Assembly: GCA_963514005.1 (NCBI GenBank)
Contig: OY740795.1
Coordinates: forward strand, 52,576,001-52,640,000
Length of the DNA stretch: 64,000 bases
Source of the DNA: Raja brachyura
Lineage: Eukaryota
Direction: 5' to 3'
Positions 2,750 to 64,000 of this stretch are shown in pieces; the first letter of the stretch is position 1, and every line of letters begins with the position of its first letter. The notes under the pieces were generated by a model. The model worked only from the letters and a program-made list of their open reading frames with translations, ran no database searches and was not told where the DNA came from. The position numbers and the translations under genes were made by a program.

Positions 2750-4295
2750 ATAGGCCGAATGGCCTAATTCTACTCCTATCAAGTCTACTCCACCATTCAA
2801 TCATGGCTGATCTATTTCTCCCTCCTAATCCCATTCTCCTGCCTTCTCCCCATAACCTCTGACACCCGTACTAATCAAGAGTCTATCGATCTCTGCCTTA
2901 AATATATCCACTGACTTTGCCTCCACAGCCTTTTGTGATAAAGAATTCCACAGATTCACCACCCTCTGACCAAAGTGTTTACCTGATCTATTCATCTCAT
3001 GATTTTGTACATTTCTATATGATCATCCCTCATCCTCCTGAGCTTGCAGGAATAAAGCCCTAGCTCAGCCTCTCCCTATAGCTCAGCCGCTCGAGACCTG
3101 TCAACATTCTTCTAAATCATCTCTTGACAATGTATTTCCTTTAGCACTCGACTCTAAATGTGGCTTCACCAATGCCTCAACAACCGTAACATGACCTCCC
3201 AACTTCTATACTCAATACTCCTACTGATGAAGGCCATTGTGCTGAAAGCCTTCTTGACCACCCTATCCACCTGTGACAACACTTTCAAGGAACTATGCAC
3301 CTGCTCTCCTAGATCCCTCTGCTTCACGACACCCCCAGACCCCTACCATCCTGCCATTATTGGACTTCCCAAAATGCAACACCTCAAATGTGTGTTTAGA
3401 AAAAATTATCTGTATTAAATTCCATTAACATTTCATTAGCCCACCAGCCAAACAGATTAAAATCCTATTGTAAACTTTGACAACCATCTTCACTATCTAC
3501 ATCAACATCCACTTTAGTGTCATCTGCGAACTTGCAAATCATGCCATGTACGTTCTCATCCAAATCATTGATATAGATGACAAACAGCAATATGCCCAGC
3601 GCCAAATCCTGAGGCATACCACTAGTCAAAGACTTCCAGTCTGAGAAACATCCTTCCACCATCACCCAATGCTTCCTTCCATGAAGCCAATTTTCTATCC
3701 ATTCAACTATCTCTGCAAGATTCCCACGCGATGTAACCTTCCAGAGCAGCCTGCCATGCGGAACCTTGTTGAATACCGAACTGAAATCCATATATACATC
3801 TACAGTTCTGCCCTCTTCAACCTTTTTGGTCAGATCTTAACAAAAAAATCAATCATGTTCGTCAAACACGACCTCCCACGTGCAAAACCATACTGACTAT
3901 CCTGAATCAGCCCTTGTCCATTTAATGCACGTGTACCTAATCCTTAAGAATAAATAATCTCTTGTAACTTTTCGGCTCACTGGCCTGTAGCTCCCTGGCT
4001 TTTCTCTGCAGCCCTTCTTGAATGGTCGCACAACATTTGCCACCCTCCAGTCTACTGGCATCTCAACTGTATTTAATGATGCCTTGTAAATCTCAGCCAG
4101 AGCACCTGCAATCTCCTCTATAGCTTCCCACGGTTTCCTCGGATATAATTGATCAGCCCCAGGTTATTTGTCTACCTTTTACACGTCAGGACTTTCAGCA
4201 CCCCCTGGACCTAATACTGACTGCTCCCAAGACACTTCCATTGACTGCCCCAAGTTCCCCAGAACTTGTGTTTTTCTCCACAGTAAAAACTGAGG
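2750..4295 (-). mobile_element. CR1 LINE RT and 3' end fragments
   Basis: ORF 3465..3791 DFSSVFNKVPHGRLL..WIENWL..PQD..LG..LFVIYINDLD..KFADDTK contains CR1 RT motifs; CR1 3' tail near 2750-2970. Confidence 0.88.
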
Positions 4296-7604: not shown

Positions 7605-7678
7605 TGTTTGCTAGCTCTGAACCGGTGCCAGGTTTCCAAGGGGACACCCTGCAGTTAGCATTCATCGACCTCAGACAA
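7605..7678 (+). CDS. EXOC6: EXOC6 (Sec15A) internal coding exon, 74 bp, third-from-last constitutive exon
   Basis: Acceptor ttgttttcag ends at 7604 and donor GTAAGT starts at 7679. After 2 split-codon bases it reads FASSEPVPGFQGDTLQLAFIDLRQ, matching recalled vertebrate EXOC6; EXOC6B is recalled as FARSGPVPGFQEDT. Confidence 0.96.
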
Positions 7679-33304: not shown

Positions 33305-34046
33305 GGCATAGACAATAGGTGCAGGAGGAGGCCATTCGACCCTTCGAGCCAGCACCGCCATTCAATGTGATCATGGCTGATCATCCCCAATCAGTACCCC
33401 GTTCCCGCCTTCTCCCCAGATCCCCGACTGCTATTTTTAAGAGCCCTATCTAGCTCTCTCTTGAAAGCATCCAGAGGACCCGCCTCCACCGCCCTCTGAG
33501 GCAGAGAATTCCACAGACTCGCCACTCTCTGTGAGAAAAAATGTTTCCTCGTCTCTGTTCTAAGTGGCTTGCTCCTTATTCTTAAACTGTGGCCCCTGGT
33601 TTTGGACTCCCCCAACATCGGGAACATGTTTCCTGCCTCTAGCGTGTGCAAACCCTTAACAATCTTATATGTTTCAATGAGATCCCCTCTCATCTTTCTA
33701 AACTCCAGAGTGTACAAGCCCAGCTGCTCCATTCTCTCAGCATATGACAGTCCTGCCATCCCTGGAATTAACCTTGCAAACCTACGCTGCACTTCCTCAA
33801 TAGCAACAATGTCCTTCCTCAAATTAGGTGACCAAAACTGCACACAATGCTCCAGGTGTGGTCTCACTAGGGCTCTGTACAACTGCAGAAGGACCTCTTT
33901 GCTCCTATATTCGATTCCTCTTGTTATAAAGGCCAACATGCCATTCGCTTTCTTCACTGCCTGCTGTACCTGCATGCTTACTTTCATAGACTGATGTACA
34001 AGGACCCCCAGATCCCGTTGTACTTCCCCTTTTCCCAACTTGACGC
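33305..34046 (-). mobile_element. Young CR1 LINE 3' end (ORF2 C-terminus, uninterrupted)
   Basis: ORF 33391..34071 VQRDLGVLVHQSMK..AVKKANGMLAFI..LYRALVRPHLEHCVQFWSP..TRGHSL..FFSQRVASLWNSLP, plus 3' tail. Confidence 0.93.
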
Positions 34047-37000
34047 ATAGTATCCAGATTGATGGAACCAAATCTCTGAAGCTACTATAATATATTGCAT
34101 TTGTATCTGAGTAGATTCATTTGTTTCTGGGGCCAATTTTACATCTTCATCTGAATCATATTCCATGCTGTGATAATGAATTAAATCACTTAAGTAAAAG
34201 TGACTACTTGTCATCAAAGTCTTTTGGAGTTGAGGATGACCTGCATCCACTCCGGTATTGCGGTTATGGGTGAGGGAATCTTAAATTCTTCCACAGAATC
34301 GATTTATTTCCTACGTATTAAAAAGATATACATCAGCTGGGTCTTCTTTTCATTAATGGTTCCCCCTGCTGGAAACTATGCATTGATATCTCGTCTCGGA
34401 TGCCTTGCACTATCAAGTAGCGTGCCAGCAATGGATCTTGTATGAAAAATAGCCAGTTGATACCGAAGAGCTGCTAATATCTGTGGGCCTACATTTGTAG
34501 TCAATTGGCATTTTCAAGATGCTGTGCTGACATCAATACTTATAGCATTGCATTAGTATAATGTAAAGGAAATTATAGTAAGTAATTGTAGAATTAATTG
34601 CTGTTTTGTAGATTTCTTATAGTTAGTGCTCTGAATTAATACTTTAAGTAGTTGGTATCTAAAATTCTCAGTTCTTTGAAATGCTAAATACTAAAGGTAA
34701 CTATCCAATGTCATTGCAGTTCAAAGGACTCATTATTAAGTTGTTTTTTTTCAATGGGAAATACTGTTTTTTCTTCTTTCTTAATTTCTATATGGATCAT
34801 GCATTCTCATATGGTCATGATGTTTGAAGACTCATGGGTGTGATAATTAGTATGGACATGGTGGGCCGAATGCCCTGTTTTCATGCTGTATCTCAGATTC
34901 TGAGTGGTCATTTTTTCTCCCCAATTTACGAAGTACCCCACCTTGTGGTCCATTCAAGAATAGAATAAGACAAGATGCCATCCACTTGTTGAATGCATTT
35001 AGAAGGATTCAAACCATTAATTGGGAAATTGTAAAGATCAAATTTCTCTAATCAAAATATTTTTCCAAGTTCTTTTCCCATTTAAACTAATAAGATTAGT
35101 AAAAATCTTAATCTTATTCGTCACCAGTTATCACTAAACATGTATTCAAGGAATGTTTCATTTAAATATTATGGGATGAAATAATGGAACGTAGATTAAT
35201 TTAAAATAGTGACCTGAATTGTATTTGGTAAATTACCATTAATTCATGACCAATGTATCTTATTTACTCAAATTATTTTCAACTTATAATCAAATTAAAA
35301 GTCAGTTGCTACATTTTTTTGTTATTCTTCATGTTTAGCCCTTAATATAATTTTGTGGAATATTCTTGTTAACAGTTAAATAGTGTAAATAATTTTGTGT
35401 TTTTAACATTTTTAAACTTGATCATTATTAATTCCTGTAATTATTAATGCAAAATTAATCTAGCGCACTCGTTGCAGAGTTTAGTAATGTTTAGTTTAGA
35501 GTGTATCATTTTTTTTCCTGAACCTTAAAATGTTAAAGTTGAAAGTGTTTTGAATTATATCACATTTAGGGTAATGTTTTATCCAATTTTTTTGTCAAGT
35601 ATTACGAGTTTAAGATTGCAGGAACATTATTCACCGTTAAATATTATGTTAAATTGGTGTTTGTAGAAGGGATAGGCAACGTGTGAAAAGCAACACCAAG
35701 CATTGATTTACTTAGGAATTCCAAATGTTTCCTCCTTTGATATTTGCTTCTACTGCTGATAGCCCTTTAGATTTTTTTGATTCTGCACTAAAACATGTGG
35801 TTTTAAATGGCTTGTGGTTCAGTGACTATGCAGTATGACAGGCAATGGAAGAGAAAATTGAGAGCTATTTTGGAAGTGTAATTTATTTTTAACTTCAGAA
35901 AACAGCTAACTCATGCATTCATTGTCTTAACGCCTCGCATATCCAAAATGCACAAAGCAATGTAAAGTATGCTTTACATTTTAGAAGCTATACTTAAATC
36001 TATGACTTGGTGTTTCATTCCTCACCTCTCTTACCCTACTAACAACATAATATGAACACTTGAGACCACATAATCTGTTTCCATTTGAGGAAAGAGTGGT
36101 CATGGATGTATGGTGCTCTATAACAATTGTCAGCACCATTCTTTGATTGTCCATGGGAGCCAAATACTTTTGCCTCTCTTCCTGCAAAAGCTCTCCTCTC
36201 CTGCAAGGTGCTTCATCATTTTAATGACATGCCTGTGAATTGACAAAACGCACTGTCAGCTAGTTCAGTCCTTTGTTTGGTTGAAAGACAAGTCCTGCTG
36301 CAACACTGAAGCTGTCTCATTGTTTGTCAATATCAACTTCTAAAGAAATGTCATCATTGCTCATCTTTTCAGACATTTTTTATTTTTTACAAATTTCAAT
36401 TGTGTTAGGATTGAAATGATTCGGCCTAGAGCAATAAAAAACAAAACAAAGACTGCCTTTTTTTTGCACTTTTCAGAACAGGGAAATAATTTGACATTTA
36501 ATCATCTTATTGTAATGCATGGACACATAACAGAACTGATCGGGCCTCTACATAATATCTCATGCAAAAGGTGGCACCTCCAATTAGTGCTGTGGTAAAA
36601 TATCAAGCTAGATATTCGTGCTGCAATTGAAGTGGAACTTACTCGCAGGTTAACAGCACCAGATGGTATAATCAATGAATAATAAATAGAAAACATATTA
36701 TTCCTGTTTCAAATGATTTCTTGCCAGTTTCCTGATGATTTATACCTCCCTGTCTTTCCCTAAAGTTGCTAACAGCTTGCTTTTTCCATCCCTGTTGAAT
36801 GGACTCCAGTAGTTAATCACCAGTTAGGCCTTATTAAGAATAAGTAAAATCATCATTACCTTCACTTGTATATTCTGCACTCCATTATGAAGTTACAATG
36901 TTATTACTTTGCACCTTAGTGACATGAGATACTGCTTTTAAACTCCAGTCTCCAACATTTCTGAGCATATTAACAGCACAGCCATCATGCTCAACACATT

Positions 37001-40640: not shown

Positions 40641-40753
40641 CTACTCGATCTGTTTATGGTGTGGGACTGGTCAACGTATCTAGCTGATTACGGGCAAGCA
40701 ACGTCCAAGTACCTGAGAGTCAATCCCAGCACAGCTCTGATACTTCTTGAGAA
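40641..40753 (+). CDS. EXOC6: EXOC6 penultimate constitutive coding exon, 113 bp
   Basis: Acceptor tcttttgcag ends at 40640 and donor GTAAGC starts at 40754. The phase 0 start matches the previous exon. Translates LLDLFMVWDWSTYLADYGQATSKYLRVNPSTALILLE plus AA. Not in the ORF track. Confidence 0.96.
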
Positions 40754-41148
40754 GTAAGCAACCTTATTTGCAGTTTCACATGTGTACATAAAGACTGATT
40801 TCTACCCAATATAAAATAGCATAGACCAAGTAATTATTTTGAATTAATTCTATTCTGAAGGAAACTATTAGTCTGCCAACTTTTTCATGTCTTAGATAGA
40901 ATTTAAAATAAATATATATATTTTAAATCTATGATTTTTGTAGAACTCTATCCAAATTTCAACTGCTAGTAAGGTATATTGCATTTATGGTAGCATTTGA
41001 AATAGAGAATGTTATTCTCAACTCACTATACCAACACTCTCCACGTCGACTGTTAAATATGCACCAACAGCTTTAAGCAGCTATCCTTTCTAATAATTTG
41101 AAGTAGCTTCTGACATGCTATCGTCATTGTCATTCCTCTCTTATACAG

Positions 41149-41160
41149 AATCTACAAAAG
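41149..41160 (+). CDS. EXOC6: Candidate 12-nt alternative microexon of EXOC6 (adds IYKR: LLEK-IYKR-MKD)
   Basis: cattcctctcttatacAG|AATCTACAAAAG|GTAAGT: pyrimidine tract, branch-like TTCTGAC at about 41108-41114, consensus donor. Length is divisible by 3, and there is no stop in the phase-2 context. Confidence 0.72.
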
Positions 41161-42229
41161 GTAAGTAGTTTTCATGTACCAGGTCATGTCGCTCATTCAT
41201 TGTTGTGAATTGAATGTTCATGCTTTGAAATTTTAGTTTGTGTTAGTGATCACTTTCATGATTAATGTATGCATCGTTAACATCATAGATTTATGAAGTC
41301 TTGACAAAACATATTTGTGATATGCTTGATTTTAACTGCATTGATATTGCATCAGTAAGCTGGTTTGGGAAAACGGTTAACATCTAACTGAATGAGATTG
41401 AAAGCTATGCCTTTGGGCAATTTAATGCAGTTTGATTTTCTTATAATCTGAGCACGTTTCTTTGTCAGACAGAAATGAATTATGATTGTTGCCCAAGAGC
41501 TTTAAATTTCCGATGCTGCATTTTGGGAATGGTTCTAACAGTGGCTTCAATGCTAGAGTTCATTATTCATGCACTATGCTAATGAATAAATAATCTCTTT
41601 ACCCAGCCTGTGTGTCTAACTCATCTTCATAGAATTATAGAATATACCCATCAATAACCATCTGGAGTAAAATGAGTGTATAAATTGTTTATAATAAAAA
41701 AAAGTCAAGGAGAATAAACTGTGCACGTAAAGAAGAAATGTTAATGATAGAAAGAACTTGAACTTAAGATTCATTTGTGTTATGAAATTTTGTGTTAATG
41801 AGTGAATTTCGTTGTTGTGCAGATTTTGCTCGAGCACAATAGTTCCACATAAATGCGGTAAAACAATTTACTTAAAATTTTCCATGCGCATTATATACAA
41901 GCGTAAACACTAAATGTGAACAGATTCATCATTGCCAGCTGAAATTGCATCTAATTTATCTGATTAATAAACATCTAGCTTTGCTATTTAAAGGAGAACA
42001 AGAGGGAAATGTGAAATTCTGAAATAAAAACAATGGTCAATAAAGAGAGAGATGGTTATATTCAATGTCATTCAGCAAAAATATCCAATGTATTCTTCAT
42101 CCCAAAAAATTCTTTCTTGGTGAATGCTGCCCATTTTGACATTTTCCAATTGCTTTTTAAAGAGTTACAGCCATATTTCATTTGAGGATACATTGTGCTG
42201 CATAGATGGTTAGATATTGCCCGTTGGAT

Positions 42230-44690: not shown

Positions 44691-46966
44691 TCACCATGTT
44701 TTAGAATATTTGTTGCCCATCTGAGTCAGTAAAGGATATCACCCCAAAAGTGCAAAACTCTTCCAACAACACCTCTGAGTGCCTAGTATTCAGTCTAATT
44801 TATAAACTACCGACAGAATTGAGAAAGACTTTTCTTGAGACACATTTCAAGTTTTCCAATTTTGCATTAAAATATTGAGGGGGGGGGGCAATGCATTATA
44901 CTGACTGATTACATCACTTAGAAACTGCACTTGATTTAGATTATGGAGGAGGAGATGTTGAGTTTAACAGGTCATTTGGAGGATCAGGCCAGAGTGTTGG
45001 GCTTGTGACAGAAGAGGATTGTGTCAGAGGCAAATAGGGGGAAGGTAGGTCAGGGGGAAGACAGGCCTGGGATTGCAGGTGAATCATTATGGGGAGAATA
45101 GGAAGGGTTGGGGACTTGTCTGATTATGAGGAGGGGATTGGGAGCTGATATGAACATTCACAGTCCGTAAGAAACCACCTAAAGGGGAATGGAGCTTCAA
45201 ACCCTGTGTACTAAGTAAAGTTAAACATCCTATAAGAAATGCAAAAACTGGCCTCTCTTCTCTGGATAAGGTCAACTTCAATATTCAGACCCAGCCCACA
45301 TTGGTGCAGAACAATTTTGTGTACGGTCTATTAAAATGCAAATTGTTTTCCATTTGACATTGCTGCATGAGCCATAATGTCTAAATGCGAATGTGCATCA
45401 TATGACGAAGTTCCAGAACCAAGAATCTGTAAATCCACGAGTGAAGCATTGACTTCACAACTGAATTGAACACCAAGTTATCTACATCTGTACTCAAAGC
45501 AACAACATACTTTTACTTAAGCCTTCTATCAGACAACATTGTTCAGCCAAATGATAAATTAGGTTTTTTGATCAACTGAATGATGAAATCCTTGAAGTCA
45601 TTCTGAGCTATAAATAACTAAATGTATTCTTATCTATTCTTTAGTTTGGTTATCTTAATGTCCTGCTGACCTAATTCAACCTACTCCTCCCCCACTCCAC
45701 TTAGTGGCAGCAGGAATATTTTCTGTACAAATCCCATGGTCAACTTGCTCTTCTCTTCCCCCACCATCTCCCATTTTTCACCCTCACCGTAGGGGCTGGA
45801 TTTAATCTTCCACGGTGTTAATCTAAATCAAATACTTCAGTTAGAATCGTTCACAGTTAATTGAATTACTGTGTAAGCTGAAACAAAAATATTCTCCACA
45901 AGATTAAACCATAGATGTGAATAATTAAATGATACAACAATGCATGGAGGTAGTTTCAGCATCTGAATAATCGAACGTTGTGCAGTAAATGATTGGTTCT
46001 TATGTAGGTTTATGTTTTTTTCCCCTTCCTTTACTCCACACAGCAGCCAATGTCATGTATTCATAATCTGTTCTTTCTCTGTGCTTTACCCAACCTTGTG
46101 CACAAATAACAGGTGATTCCTTTAAGCTGCTTCTAATTCTTAGACATGTATCTGAGTGGAGAGTCTGTAGACAGTATAAAAGATGTGGACAACCCGAGAG
46201 CATAAAATTTAAATATCATGACGAAAATATATATACAGTTCCGGGGAGGGGCGGTGGGAAATCTAAAGAATTCTTGTCCAAAGTTTTTAAATCAACAAGA
46301 TCTAGCTCAAAAGACTATTTTGATTATGATTGAAATAGCTAACTTTTTCCAAGCCTAAAGAATTAGAACTCCGCACAAACTAGTAACTTGTTCAAAGTAA
46401 CAAAATACTCTGGGAAAGAGTGTTAGCTATAATCTACCCTTGCATAATATATAGCCATCATATTCCCCATTCTAACAAATACTTTATCAATCAGAGCATG
46501 GGCCATTTAAAATTTTGAATTGGTTCATTACCACTTTCATTAATGCGTCTGCAAAATAATTTCTGAGTAAATGAAGTTTTTAAACACTGGTAATTATTTT
46601 TGTCACCCTGCTCTGAATCTTTCCATAATTTCGGTATCATCCACCATACAGGGGTACCAAAGCTGAACACAACTTTCATAAAGTACTCTTAAAGCTTTGT
46701 ACAAAAGTTATTAATACCAGCTAATAACCCATTTAATTTGGGATATAATTTCTTGAATATCAGCTGCAGGCTCACTGTGGTTTATTATAACAAAAGTTAA
46801 ATGAAGTTTTACAACAAAGTAATTACAAGTCACGATTAGATTTCAGTGCAAATTAAATTACCAATCACAGGTGGAAGTTCATTGAAAAGTCCATCTGAAG
46901 TGGAAGTTCATTGAACATCTAATTCGATGGGAATGAAAATTGGTAGAAAATACATTGGAAGATGTG

Positions 46967-48343
46967 AGACAAATACTGGAGAAACTCAGCGGGTGAGGCA
47001 GCATCTATGGAACGAAGGAATAGGTGATGTTTCAGGTCGAGACCCTTCTTCAGACTGATGTGGGGGTGGGGGAGGGGGCGCGGGAAGAAGTAAGGAAGAG
47101 GCGGAGACAGTGTGCTGTGGGAGAGCTGGGAGGGGAAGGAGGGAGAAAGAAAGGACTATCTGAAATTGGAGAAGTCAATGTTCATACTGCTGGGGTGTAA
47201 ACTACCCAAGCAAAATATGAGGTGCTGCTCCTTCAATTTGCGGTGGACCTCACTCTGGCCATGGAGGAAAGAAAGGTTGGATTCAGAATGGGAGGGGGAG
47301 TTGAAGTGCTGAGCCACCGGGACATCAGGTTGGTTAATGCGAACTGTGCAGAGGTGTTGGGCGAAGCGATCGCCAAGCCTGTGGATGCAATAGATGAGGT
47401 TGGAGGAGGTGCAGTTGAACCTCTGCCTCACCTGGAAAGGTCCTTGGATGGAGTCAAGGGGGGAGATAAAGCGACAACTGTAGCATTATCTGCGGTTGCA
47501 AGGGAAAGAACCAGGGGAGGGGTTGGTTTGGGTGGGAACGGACAAATTGACCAGGGAGTGACGGAGGGAGCGGCCTCTGTGAAAAGCTGAAAAGGGAGGA
47601 GATGTGAAGATGTGGCCAGTGGTGGGAGGTGGCGAAAATGTTGGAAGATTATCTGTTGTATGTGACGGCTGGTAGATGGAATGTGAGGACAAGGGAGTTT
47701 CTGTCTTTGTTACGAGTGGGGGGATGGGGAGTGAGAGCGGAGTTGCGGGATATAGAAGAGACCCTGAGCCTCAGCTATAGTCGAAGAGGGGAACCCCCGT
47801 TCTCTAAAGAATGAGGACGTCTCCGATGCCCTGGTTTGGACCGCAGGAAATGATACACTTGTCGCTTTACCACCCCATCCAAGGACCTAAGCCGTCTTTC
47901 CAGGTGAGGCAGACGTTCACCTGCGCCTCCTCCAACCTTGTCTATTGCATCCGCTGCTCTAGGTGTCAACTGCTCTACATCGGTGAGACCAAGCGCAGGC
48001 TTGGCGATCGCTTCGCCCAACACCTCCGCACAGTTCGAATTAACCAACCTGATATCCCGGTGGCTCAGAACTTTAACTCCCCCTCCCATTCCGAATCCGA
48101 CCTTTCTGTCCTGGGCCTTTTCCATGGCCAGAGTGAGTCCCACTGCAAATTGGAGGAGCAGCACCTCATATTTCACTTGGGTAGTTTACACCACAGTGGT
48201 ATGAACATTGATTCTCCAATTTCAGGTAGTCCTTGCTTTCTCCCTCCTTCCCCTCCCCTTCCCATAGATGCTGCCTCACCCGCTGAGTTTCTCCAGCTTT
48301 TTTGTCCACCTTCGATTTTCCAGCATCTGCAGTTCTTTCACAA
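46967..48343. mobile_element. PLE insertion with long inverted arms (minus ~46967-47835, plus ~47850-48343)
   Basis: ORF 47811..48350 NLVYCIRCSRCQLLYIGETKRRLGDRFAQH..SH..EEQHLIFHLGSL is a GIY-YIG endonuclease with CxxC; mirror ORF 47156..47431 (-). TSD acatt(g/a)gaagat(g/a)tg at 46952-46966 and 48344-48358. Confidence 0.92.
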
Positions 48344-48734
48344 ACATTAGAAGATATGGTTGTCCACCAGATAGCATTTAAAAAGAGAGATGAGGAAACC
48401 CTGTGCAGAAAGTATTAAAAACTGTTAACTCACAATTTAAAGTGATCTGATGGTTTCAATATGTCACAGTTACATGTGTGTTTATTTACTATTCATCTTT
48501 TAACATTCCTGCTTTGGTGAACATGCTGTAATTCAACCTTCCTGCCAGTGGTGTCACTATACTACCTCCAGTTTTTCAATAAATTTCTAAGCTTGCCAAT
48601 GTCCATATTTTGCTATTAAACTAAGCATTATAACATAATTAAAAACGATACTAGATGTGTACATGTGGAAAGAGAATGCCACCAGTGCCCCGATCCAGTT
48701 ACCCACCTACACAAAGATGATGCATCATTTTAGA

Positions 48735-48845
48735 AACAAAGAAGTGTGATTAATGGTTTATACCAAAGATAGACACAAAGTGCTGGAGCATCTCAGCGGG
48801 TCAGGCAGCATCTCTGGAGAAACAGCATGGGTGACGTTTCAGGTT
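48735..48845 (-). mobile_element. PLE-derived short element truncated inside the hammerhead motif
   Basis: Tail motif ending ggtgacgtttcaggt. Confidence 0.72.
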
Positions 48846-52127: not shown

Positions 52128-52260
52128 AATGAAAGATACCAACAAAAAAAACATTATATTTTCTCAGTTCAGAAAAAATGACCGTGATAAACAGAAACTA
52201 ATCGAGACAGTAGTGAAGCAACTACGCAGTTTGGTGAATGGCATGTCCCAACACACATAG
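52128..52260 (+). CDS. EXOC6: EXOC6 terminal coding exon
   Basis: Acceptor ttattttgcag ends at 52127. The first A completes the Lys codon (AA|A), then MKDTNKKNIIFSQFRKNDRDKQKLIETVVKQLRSLVNGMSQHT-TAG, matching the recalled EXOC6 C-terminus. Confidence 0.96.
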
Positions 52261-62664: not shown

Positions 62665-63177
62665 ATCATTGCATTCAAATGCTCTGGAATTATAGCTTTA
62701 AAGAGAGTTGTTTCTGTAAATTTTGATAGAGAACAAACGGGCTGCGTTCGGCGGATTCCCATTGACAACCGCGACCCAATTGACCCGGAACACCAAGTAA
62801 ATGTATTCTTTAAAATAATAGCCTTTATAAAACTTGTTTTCCAGTTTTTCTCCTTTAAAGACGAGTCCTTCGTTAACGACTAAACAAACAGTTAAAACGG
62901 TTCCAACGGATTATATTTGTTTATAGGGTAAGTTTTCATTTCAATCTCTGCCATTCTAGTGCACATTTTCAGGGACTAGCATTTCTTTGGCGGTTCTAGT
63001 GGTTTACATTTTTTCTGAGTGAATGTTAATCTGTGTGTAGGGTCCGAGCGGAGGTTGAAGATCGGCAGAAGGTCGCCCATCCACTGTGAGGAAGGAGCTT
63101 CGTGTTAATAATAAACCCTTGTTATTGAGACCAAGTTCTCGGGGACGAGACCGACATTCCCATCCACAGTGCTGGCC

Positions 63178-63381
63178 ATGTTCCTGTTGGGGATTGACTA
63201 CCTCTCGGCGCTGGCTATGGCTCTCGCCTCGTTGCTGTCGGCGCTGCTTCTACTCGCCGTGTCCAGACAGCTGTGGACCCTCGCCTGGAACGTGACCAGA
63301 GACAGGGACAGCAAGCTGCCTCTTCCCAAGGGCTCCATGGGCTGGCCGCTACTCGGAGAGACGCTGCACTGGATGGTACAG
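63178..63381 (+). CDS. CYP26C1: Cytochrome P450 26C1 (retinoic acid hydroxylase), first coding exon, 204 bp; gene continues beyond the window
   Basis: GCCATG start and donor CAG|GTATGG. Encodes [68 protein letters not shown]: a TM anchor plus the CYP26 [17 protein letters not shown] motif. GSMGWP (GSMGFP in 26B1) and the position after EXOC6 favour C1. Confidence 0.88.
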
Positions 63382-64000
63382 GTATGGAAGAGAAGGCACC
63401 AGTCGGCAGCGAAGCGGATAATCCTGCCCGATAGGTGTTTTATATCAAGGGGTGGGGCAGTTAACCTGGGCGTCCGCCCTGCTCAATTACTGTTTCCCTT
63501 TTGGTGGTTTCACTTGGCGAACACTTGTACTTTTATATTGTAGAAATGCAGCGAAATGCAATCACCAGTGTTCCTTTCTGCGCGTCTCATCTACATTGGT
63601 AGTGTATCTCCCTCCCTTGCAGGGCCGGACTTTCACCTGCTGAGGCCATAAACTCTATGAAATTTGAAGCCCTTCTAGAAAAATAATTCGGGTAAAATAT
63701 GATAAAATAAATATATATTTTTAAAAAAATGAGGCCCCCGAGGGTGTGTGGGCCTAAGCTATACTTATTTAACTTATAGGTAAGTCCAGCACTGCTCCCT
63801 TGCTGCTCCCGAGAAAGTCCAAACACGGTGGTGTCATAATCTGACCATAACATCGCTCCAAAAATGTTGCTTATTTTTTTAAAATCTTCATAAACTCGTG
63901 TGGGAACCCGTTTAGTCGAGTTTCCCTCAGTGCCCAGTTTGGCTTCCGAAAGGAAACTATCCAATCTCCACATACACGCGTGCACTGAAGCTGAGGTCTA

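Follow-up and report, generated by a model that had tools for sequence, protein, structure and literature searches.

A 12-nucleotide in-frame microexon in the last EXOC6 intron of a skate, probably an alternative exon of neuronal and neuroendocrine use

Introduction

Is a 12-nt stretch lying between an AG and a strong donor site in the last EXOC6 intron of the skate Raja brachyura a genuine alternative exon and, if so, how old is it, where is it included, and under whose control? We addressed this question in a window of 64,000 nt (contig OY740795.1, positions 52,576,001 to 52,640,000 of the forward strand; all coordinates below are those of the window). We consider it very likely that this stretch is a frame-preserving alternative microexon of 12 bases, which adds IYKR after Lys765, occurs throughout the jawed vertebrates and is used mainly in neuronal and neuroendocrine cells.

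Results

The host gene and the rest of the window

Three coding exons of EXOC6 were identified in the window by tblastn (Table 1), and the translation of the last of these exons is 100% identical to Amblyraja radiata EXOC6; the penultimate constitutive exon likewise encodes the same residues as in that skate. The protein has Pfam matches to Sec15_C and EXOC6_Sec15_N. In a tree of 20 C-terminal sequences, the EXOC6B rows formed one clade (95/99) and the skate row lay outside it. On these sequence grounds, the gene is EXOC6 (Sec15A), not EXOC6B. EXOC6 proteins have two alternative N-termini and a second alternative exon, located upstream of the window, of 30 nt (10 residues, NNVSHHAAMS in skate) after Pro655 of sequence P0002; this 10-residue insert was present in 118 of the 339 EXOC6 sequences.

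The last intron also contains high-copy repeats (46959-48844), an inverted repeat pair (47128-47439 and 47896-48257, about 89% identity) and a Penelope-like GIY-YIG endonuclease remnant (47808-48350). LINE-type retrotransposon remnants were found on the minus strand at 3465-3836, with an RVT_1 match, and at 33391-34116, without a Pfam match. An ORF on the plus strand (63115-63543), which we take to resemble the first coding exon of a CYP26 gene, gave no Pfam match and no similarity to the lizard model P0285. That model fuses the EXOC6 C-terminus to "Cytochrome P450 26C1", which fits an EXOC6-CYP26C1 neighbourhood.

Table 1. Features of the EXOC6 gene in the window, with the microexon and its candidate signals
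Feature	Positions	Strand	Basis and remarks
EXOC6 coding exon, third from end	7605..7678	+	tblastn and splice sites; residues about 703-727 of the skate protein
EXOC6 penultimate constitutive exon, 113 nt	40641..40753	+	tblastn; contig cover in 4/4 runs
Branch-point-like CTGAC	41110..41114	+	Pattern match only; A at 41113 (-36)
TGC (UGC) motif	41116..41118	+	-33, between branch point and pyrimidine tract
Microexon pyrimidine tract and acceptor AG	41130..41148	+	AG at 41147-41148
Microexon, 12 nt, in frame	41149..41160	+	Sequence reading; Amblyraja radiata RefSeq models with IYKR
Microexon donor GTAAGT	41161..41166	+	U1 consensus match 8/9
UCAU/YCAY cluster, candidate NOVA-type intronic enhancer	41172..41286	+	Motif count
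EXOC6 last coding exon (MKD...SQHT)	52128..52260	+	Stop TAG at 52258-52260, then 3' UTR

Geometry of the microexon and control for chance

The 113-nt exon ends at 40753 and the microexon starts at 41149, leaving an upstream intron of 395 nt; the downstream intron, which extends to the last exon, is 10,967 nt long. The 113-nt exon stops two bases into the Lys765 codon (phase 2), and inclusion of the microexon yields K-I-Y-K-R-M, with the frame intact and no stop codons. The preliminary description had placed a 12-nt AG...GT unit 395 nt past the 113-bp exon and had read the change as LLEK/MKD to LLEK-IYKR-MKD without frameshift or stop; its exact coordinates were confirmed, with a single match in the intron, and the translation agrees both with our own and with the Amblyraja radiata models. 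The length of the exon, its canonical AG and GT flanks and the conservation of frame place it within the 3-27 nt definition of microexons. Pyrimidines account for 75% of the 20 nt preceding its CAG, AG is absent from -43 to -3, and a second branch-point candidate (A at 41093) was detected by pattern matching. The microexon donor matches the U1 consensus at 8/9 positions, versus 6/9 for the upstream constitutive donor. Folding of the RNA from 41080 to 41290 predicted a structure no stronger than that of shuffled sequences (z +0.96). The intron upstream of the microexon includes an AT-rich near-palindrome of 37 nt (40896-40932).

The frequency of such units was assessed by scanning for an acceptor followed by 3-27 nt, in multiples of three, and a strong donor. 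The microexon was the sole match in the 11,374-nt last intron, even with relaxed thresholds, and the same scan returned no match in the preceding intron, of 32,962 nt, or on the minus strand of the window. The expectation from 200 dinucleotide shuffles was a mean of 0.01 matches per intron, a figure that is lenient because the thresholds of the scan were chosen with the candidate known.

Annotation and distribution across vertebrates

A skate annotation of the exon already exists. Three of the Amblyraja radiata RefSeq isoforms carry IYKR (X1, X5 and X7; XP_032889484.1, XP_032889488.1 and XP_032889491.1) and two skip it (X2 and X6); XP_ models are predictions, usually supported by RNA-seq. Among the 120 listed matches to the skate query, seven had a four-residue insert (VNRG in three, IYKR in two, VHRG and VYRG in one each), 102 were scored as insertless by pattern and four by eye, and two were unparsed. 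The other five have three-residue inserts (YVV, YVS and YVL), which were left out of the count because they resemble the product of gene models that read through into the intron. With a gar-insert query, the best 120 matches all had four residues (VYRG 69, VNRG 33, VHRG 17 and VYKG 1), a set selected by the query that does not represent a frequency. The carriers were gar, eels, many teleosts, turtles, lizards, birds and carnivores, with marsupials appearing in other listings. The skate-insert query identified isoform X4 of the bamboo shark Chiloscyllium plagiosum, with IDRG at the same junction, and the pattern conserved across lineages is I/V-x-R/K-G/R. The junction after Lys765 was the only site of recurrent four-residue insertion in the full-length sequences (149/339). 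Within the cartilaginous fish, an insert-bearing isoform was seen in two of the 17 named species (15 of 96 main-cluster members listed), and the insert was present in none of 11 full-length Logan-derived skate-like proteins.

The presence of the insert in a skate, a shark and bony vertebrates implies that the exon is older than the split between cartilaginous and bony fish; at the protein level, the microexon is common to jawed vertebrates. These observations modify the preliminary description in one respect and bear it out in two others. The exon had been called hidden, and the RefSeq models make it neither hidden nor new. The VHRG insert mentioned for some bony-vertebrate EXOC6 isoforms is indeed present at the LLEK/MKD junction, and the age proposed, that of the gnathostome ancestor, is consistent, as a minimum, with the distribution among skate, bamboo shark and bony vertebrates.

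Splicing in skate, zebrafish and human

Contigs from four of 22 listed sequencing runs (none RNA on record, 14 RNA by guess) were placed on the window, and both flanking exons were covered at one depth in all four. In run X2, one contig joins 40753 directly to 52128, and skipping therefore occurs. No inclusion joint was displayed in X2, X17, X1 or X9, and no skip joint in the last three of these runs, the joint tables being dominated by repeats of the 11-kb intron. Depth in the bin containing the microexon was 23.1 in X17, 8.75 in X9 and 0 in X1 and X2, a signal in which the exon, a retained intron and the near-palindrome at 40896-40932 are indistinguishable. As the contigs represent the major form and their tissues are unlabelled, inclusion is neither shown nor excluded by them; the evidence for inclusion is provided by the RefSeq models and a published zebrafish event, and that for skipping by the X2 contig.

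The preliminary description had pointed to VastDB for a 12-nt EXOC6 exon, and two such events were found, DreEX0031112 in zebrafish and HsaEX0023471 in human. In the parts of the zebrafish source covered here (PMC12626424), DreEX0031112 is a 12-nt neural microexon of exoc6, with a PSI of 92.7 in neural tissue, 47.7 in endocrine pancreas, 28.1 in muscle, 20.1 in immune cells and 0 in liver, testis and ovary (neural dPSI 86.5). Its PSI is 0 until 8 hpf and has climbed to about 78 by 4-6 dpf, and loss of srrm3/4 lowers it (dPSI -32.3), which passes the paper's threshold for dependence (below -15). The same tables class the human ortholog as NO_REG, with a neural dPSI of 13.8 and a response to SRRM-type regulators of +6.85. 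Given that the Lys765 junction is the sole site of recurrent four-residue insertion, we infer that DreEX0031112 lies at this junction, and the exon has by the same reasoning already been quantified in zebrafish and human; no Danio or human EXOC6 protein was present among the insert matches.

According to the covered part of a study of SRRM3/4-dependent microexons (bioRxiv 10.1101/2024.09.17.613571), UGC lies between the branch point and the AG in 74-79% of such exons; the motif, tested between the tract and the AG, has most effect at an exon-specific position and is not strictly required. The order upstream of the skate exon is predicted branch point (-36), UGC (-33), pyrimidine tract and AG. 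The UGC is thus past the predicted branch point but ahead of the tract, a layout that is permissive for SRRM3/4, yet atypical. The neural and endocrine SRRM3/4 control proposed in the preliminary description finds partial support: the likely zebrafish ortholog is enriched in these tissues and partly srrm3/4-dependent, but the human response is only +6.85 and the skate UGC lies far from the AG. On balance, we slightly favour a partial dependence of the skate exon on SRRM3/4.

A UCAU cluster downstream of the microexon

The 120 nt just past the microexon donor (41167-41286) contain seven TCAT and eight YCAY motifs, a cluster that had been overlooked in the preliminary description. Seven TCAT per 120 nt are reached nowhere else on the plus strand of the window (mean 0.71), and eight YCAY per 120 nt occur in 0.56% of windows of this size, spread over 10 places. 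Against dinucleotide shuffles the p value was 0.01, uncorrected for the ten motif classes tried. The corresponding counts for the two other donors tested were 0 and 1, and no RBFOX (GCATG), QKI or ESRP motifs were found from 100 nt upstream to 200 nt downstream of the microexon. Binding of NOVA downstream of an exon enhances its inclusion. UCAU is the top NOVA tetramer in the CLIP data covered (PMC4930328), and the covered part of PMC12871342 includes NOVA1 among the proteins that regulate microexons. The cluster suggests NOVA control beside that by SRRM3/4, with which it is compatible; we regard a NOVA contribution in skate as a real possibility, somewhat short of even. No exoc6 event appears in the mouse NOVA tables covered (12 of 15 files, part of the PMC4930328 supplement), in which a single Exoc6b exon of 167 nt is unrelated, and exoc6 was not found in the parts covered of the supplements of PMC12626420 (12 of 13 files), PMC12868881, PMC7821500 and PMC4930328.

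These elements would fit together as follows. The short exon would be poorly defined by default, despite its strong donor, and would be skipped; neuronal SRRM3/4 would assist recognition of its acceptor, and a NOVA-family protein bound to the downstream UCAU cluster would raise inclusion further.

The best-surviving alternative, which we nevertheless consider improbable, is that the exon is real but included weakly and broadly in cartilaginous fish, as in human, the sharp neural pattern being a teleost feature. The low human values for neural dPSI and regulator response are consistent with this possibility, as are the lack of the insert in all 11 Logan-derived proteins, the two insert-bearing species among the 17 cartilaginous fish and the atypical place of the UGC. 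Nevertheless, the skate exon has a strong donor and a dense UCAU cluster, Logan contigs keep the major form from unlabelled tissues, and the isoform lists are sampled. A mainly neuronal and neuroendocrine exon is the reading that we retain.

Predicted effect on the protein

Another role for the unit would be the choice of the 3' end, with the microexon running into the intron, and the protein, cut after IYKR, losing the last helix. Read-through of either donor encounters an immediate stop (40754-40756, LLEK-stop; 41161-41163, IYKR-stop), an AATAAA lies near 41586 in the last intron, bird models P0418 and P0487 run from VHRG into the intron, and several RefSeq models end at LLEK. Such a main role is nonetheless very improbable, because the insert is joined in frame to the last exon in the 149 of 339 sequences mentioned above and no lineage departs from the frame; the truncated models may reflect the annotation of retained introns.

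For the in-frame microexon, AlphaFold2 predicts a penultimate helix of residues 756-769 without the insert and 756-776 with it, with pLDDT values for residues 771-790 that are modest in both cases (54-79 and 65-67, respectively). The Pfam domain Sec15_C extends no further than residue 765, and the alignment with the Drosophila crystal structure 2A2F is confined to residues 414-734, such that no solved metazoan structure among the matches covers the insert. The first inserted residue in EXOC6 is always Ile or Val and would, in the models, occupy the place of Met766 in the helix. A frame-preserving Sec15A isoform had been anticipated in the preliminary description, and stands; the basic character attributed to the insert is not the conserved property, as the shark IDRG is net neutral. 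The four residues are predicted to add about one turn, or more, to the penultimate helix, at the distal tip of Sec15 and beyond the C-terminal domain that was crystallised; the last helix and the basic loop that follows it would be displaced as a result. We tentatively suggest, with some doubt, that the insert may in this way fine-tune the binding of vesicles or partners, rather than act as an on/off switch.

EXOC6 has been reviewed as binding Rab11 and Rabin8, with no tie to the insert site in the part of the review covered (PMC12089063). The removal of developmentally regulated microexons is reported to have minimal effects in zebrafish larvae (PMC12626420), which makes a subtle role the likely one. 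No paper on the function of the EXOC6 or EXOC6B microexon was found among Creative Commons articles in PMC and bioRxiv.

The paralog EXOC6B

The tamarin model P0276 (KAK2092662.1), from the EXOC6B clade, reads LLE-NHDKR-MKD, with four extra residues at the same junction. It is the only one with a clean four-residue insert among 74 representative proteins spanning the junction, a set in which an invertebrate origin was also looked for. The human EXOC6B exon HsaEX0023494 presumably lies in the last intron of that gene, and from its length and gene we infer that it is the NHDKR exon. This exon, also of 12 nt, goes from a PSI of 1.7 to 98.4 with SRRM4 in HEK293 cells (PMC7935315, in part), and every exon match displayed in the 12 of 19 supplement files covered belongs to EXOC6B.

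The sharing of this phase-2 junction by 12-nt exons of the two paralogs suggests that the exon arose before EXOC6 and EXOC6B were duplicated, a proposal that draws on one gene model and the presumed identity of HsaEX0023494. Alternatively, the two exons could be independent gains within the same intron. The possibility that the KR of the skate insert is an ancestral state shared with EXOC6B was dropped, as the shark IDRG resembles bony vertebrates. In its fullest form, the proposal would be that the microexon predates the early vertebrate duplication and was kept by both genes at the same junction, with control then split between a switch-like SRRM4 response in EXOC6B and NOVA-driven (UCAU), partly SRRM3/4-dependent inclusion in EXOC6; we consider this combination speculative and rather unlikely. 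The exon is switch-like in zebrafish EXOC6 and weak in human EXOC6, and human EXOC6B is strongly SRRM4-responsive; a neural role may have moved between the paralogs. No exoc6b event is present in the covered part of the zebrafish neural list (PMC12626424).

Discussion

The weakest alternative, namely a cryptic exon arisen by chance or an artefact of gene prediction passed from one annotation to another, is extremely unlikely: although the skate and shark support consists of predicted XP_ models and no inclusion contig was seen, the residues vary by lineage (IYKR, IDRG, VYRG, VNRG and VHRG), the skate DNA has, between canonical sites, the coding sequence for exactly the skate residues, RNA-seq was the basis on which the 12-nt event was quantified in zebrafish, and the shuffle expectation is 0.01.

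As a frame-preserving alternative microexon of jawed vertebrates, the exon is an ordinary one, among a few hundred conserved vertebrate microexons. The retention of the insert from skates and sharks to other fish and mammals, with a probable counterpart in EXOC6B, points to a role of the extreme C-terminus of Sec15 that is so far unstudied, and the skate intron poses a testable question of NOVA versus SRRM control. If the shared origin with EXOC6B and the divided control were true, the two genes would lend themselves to paired studies of regulator change in duplicated microexons, and the last Sec15 helices would be a neuron-tuned exocyst interface.

Comparison with known systems

The closest known counterparts of the exon are isoforms X1, X5 and X7 of Amblyraja radiata EXOC6, which have an identical IYKR at an identical junction and display no differences at the protein level. 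The zebrafish and human events DreEX0031112 and HsaEX0023471 are also 12 nt long and in EXOC6, probably at the same junction. They differ in the residues of the insert (VNRG in other cypriniforms and VHRG in tetrapods, versus IYKR in skate) and in the nature of the evidence, inclusion having been measured in zebrafish and human and deduced in skate from predicted gene models, and the human exon falls outside the neural class. HsaEX0023494 of human EXOC6B has the same length in a paralogous gene, but different residues, and is a strong SRRM4 target, in contrast to the weak response of the human EXOC6 exon. Finally, the skate exon resembles members of the SRRM3/4 program in its size within 3-27 nt, preserved frame, vesicle-transport gene, strong donor and UGC between the predicted branch point and the AG, and departs from them in the location of this UGC upstream of the tract, the partial dependence of its likely zebrafish ortholog and the NOVA-type cluster downstream.
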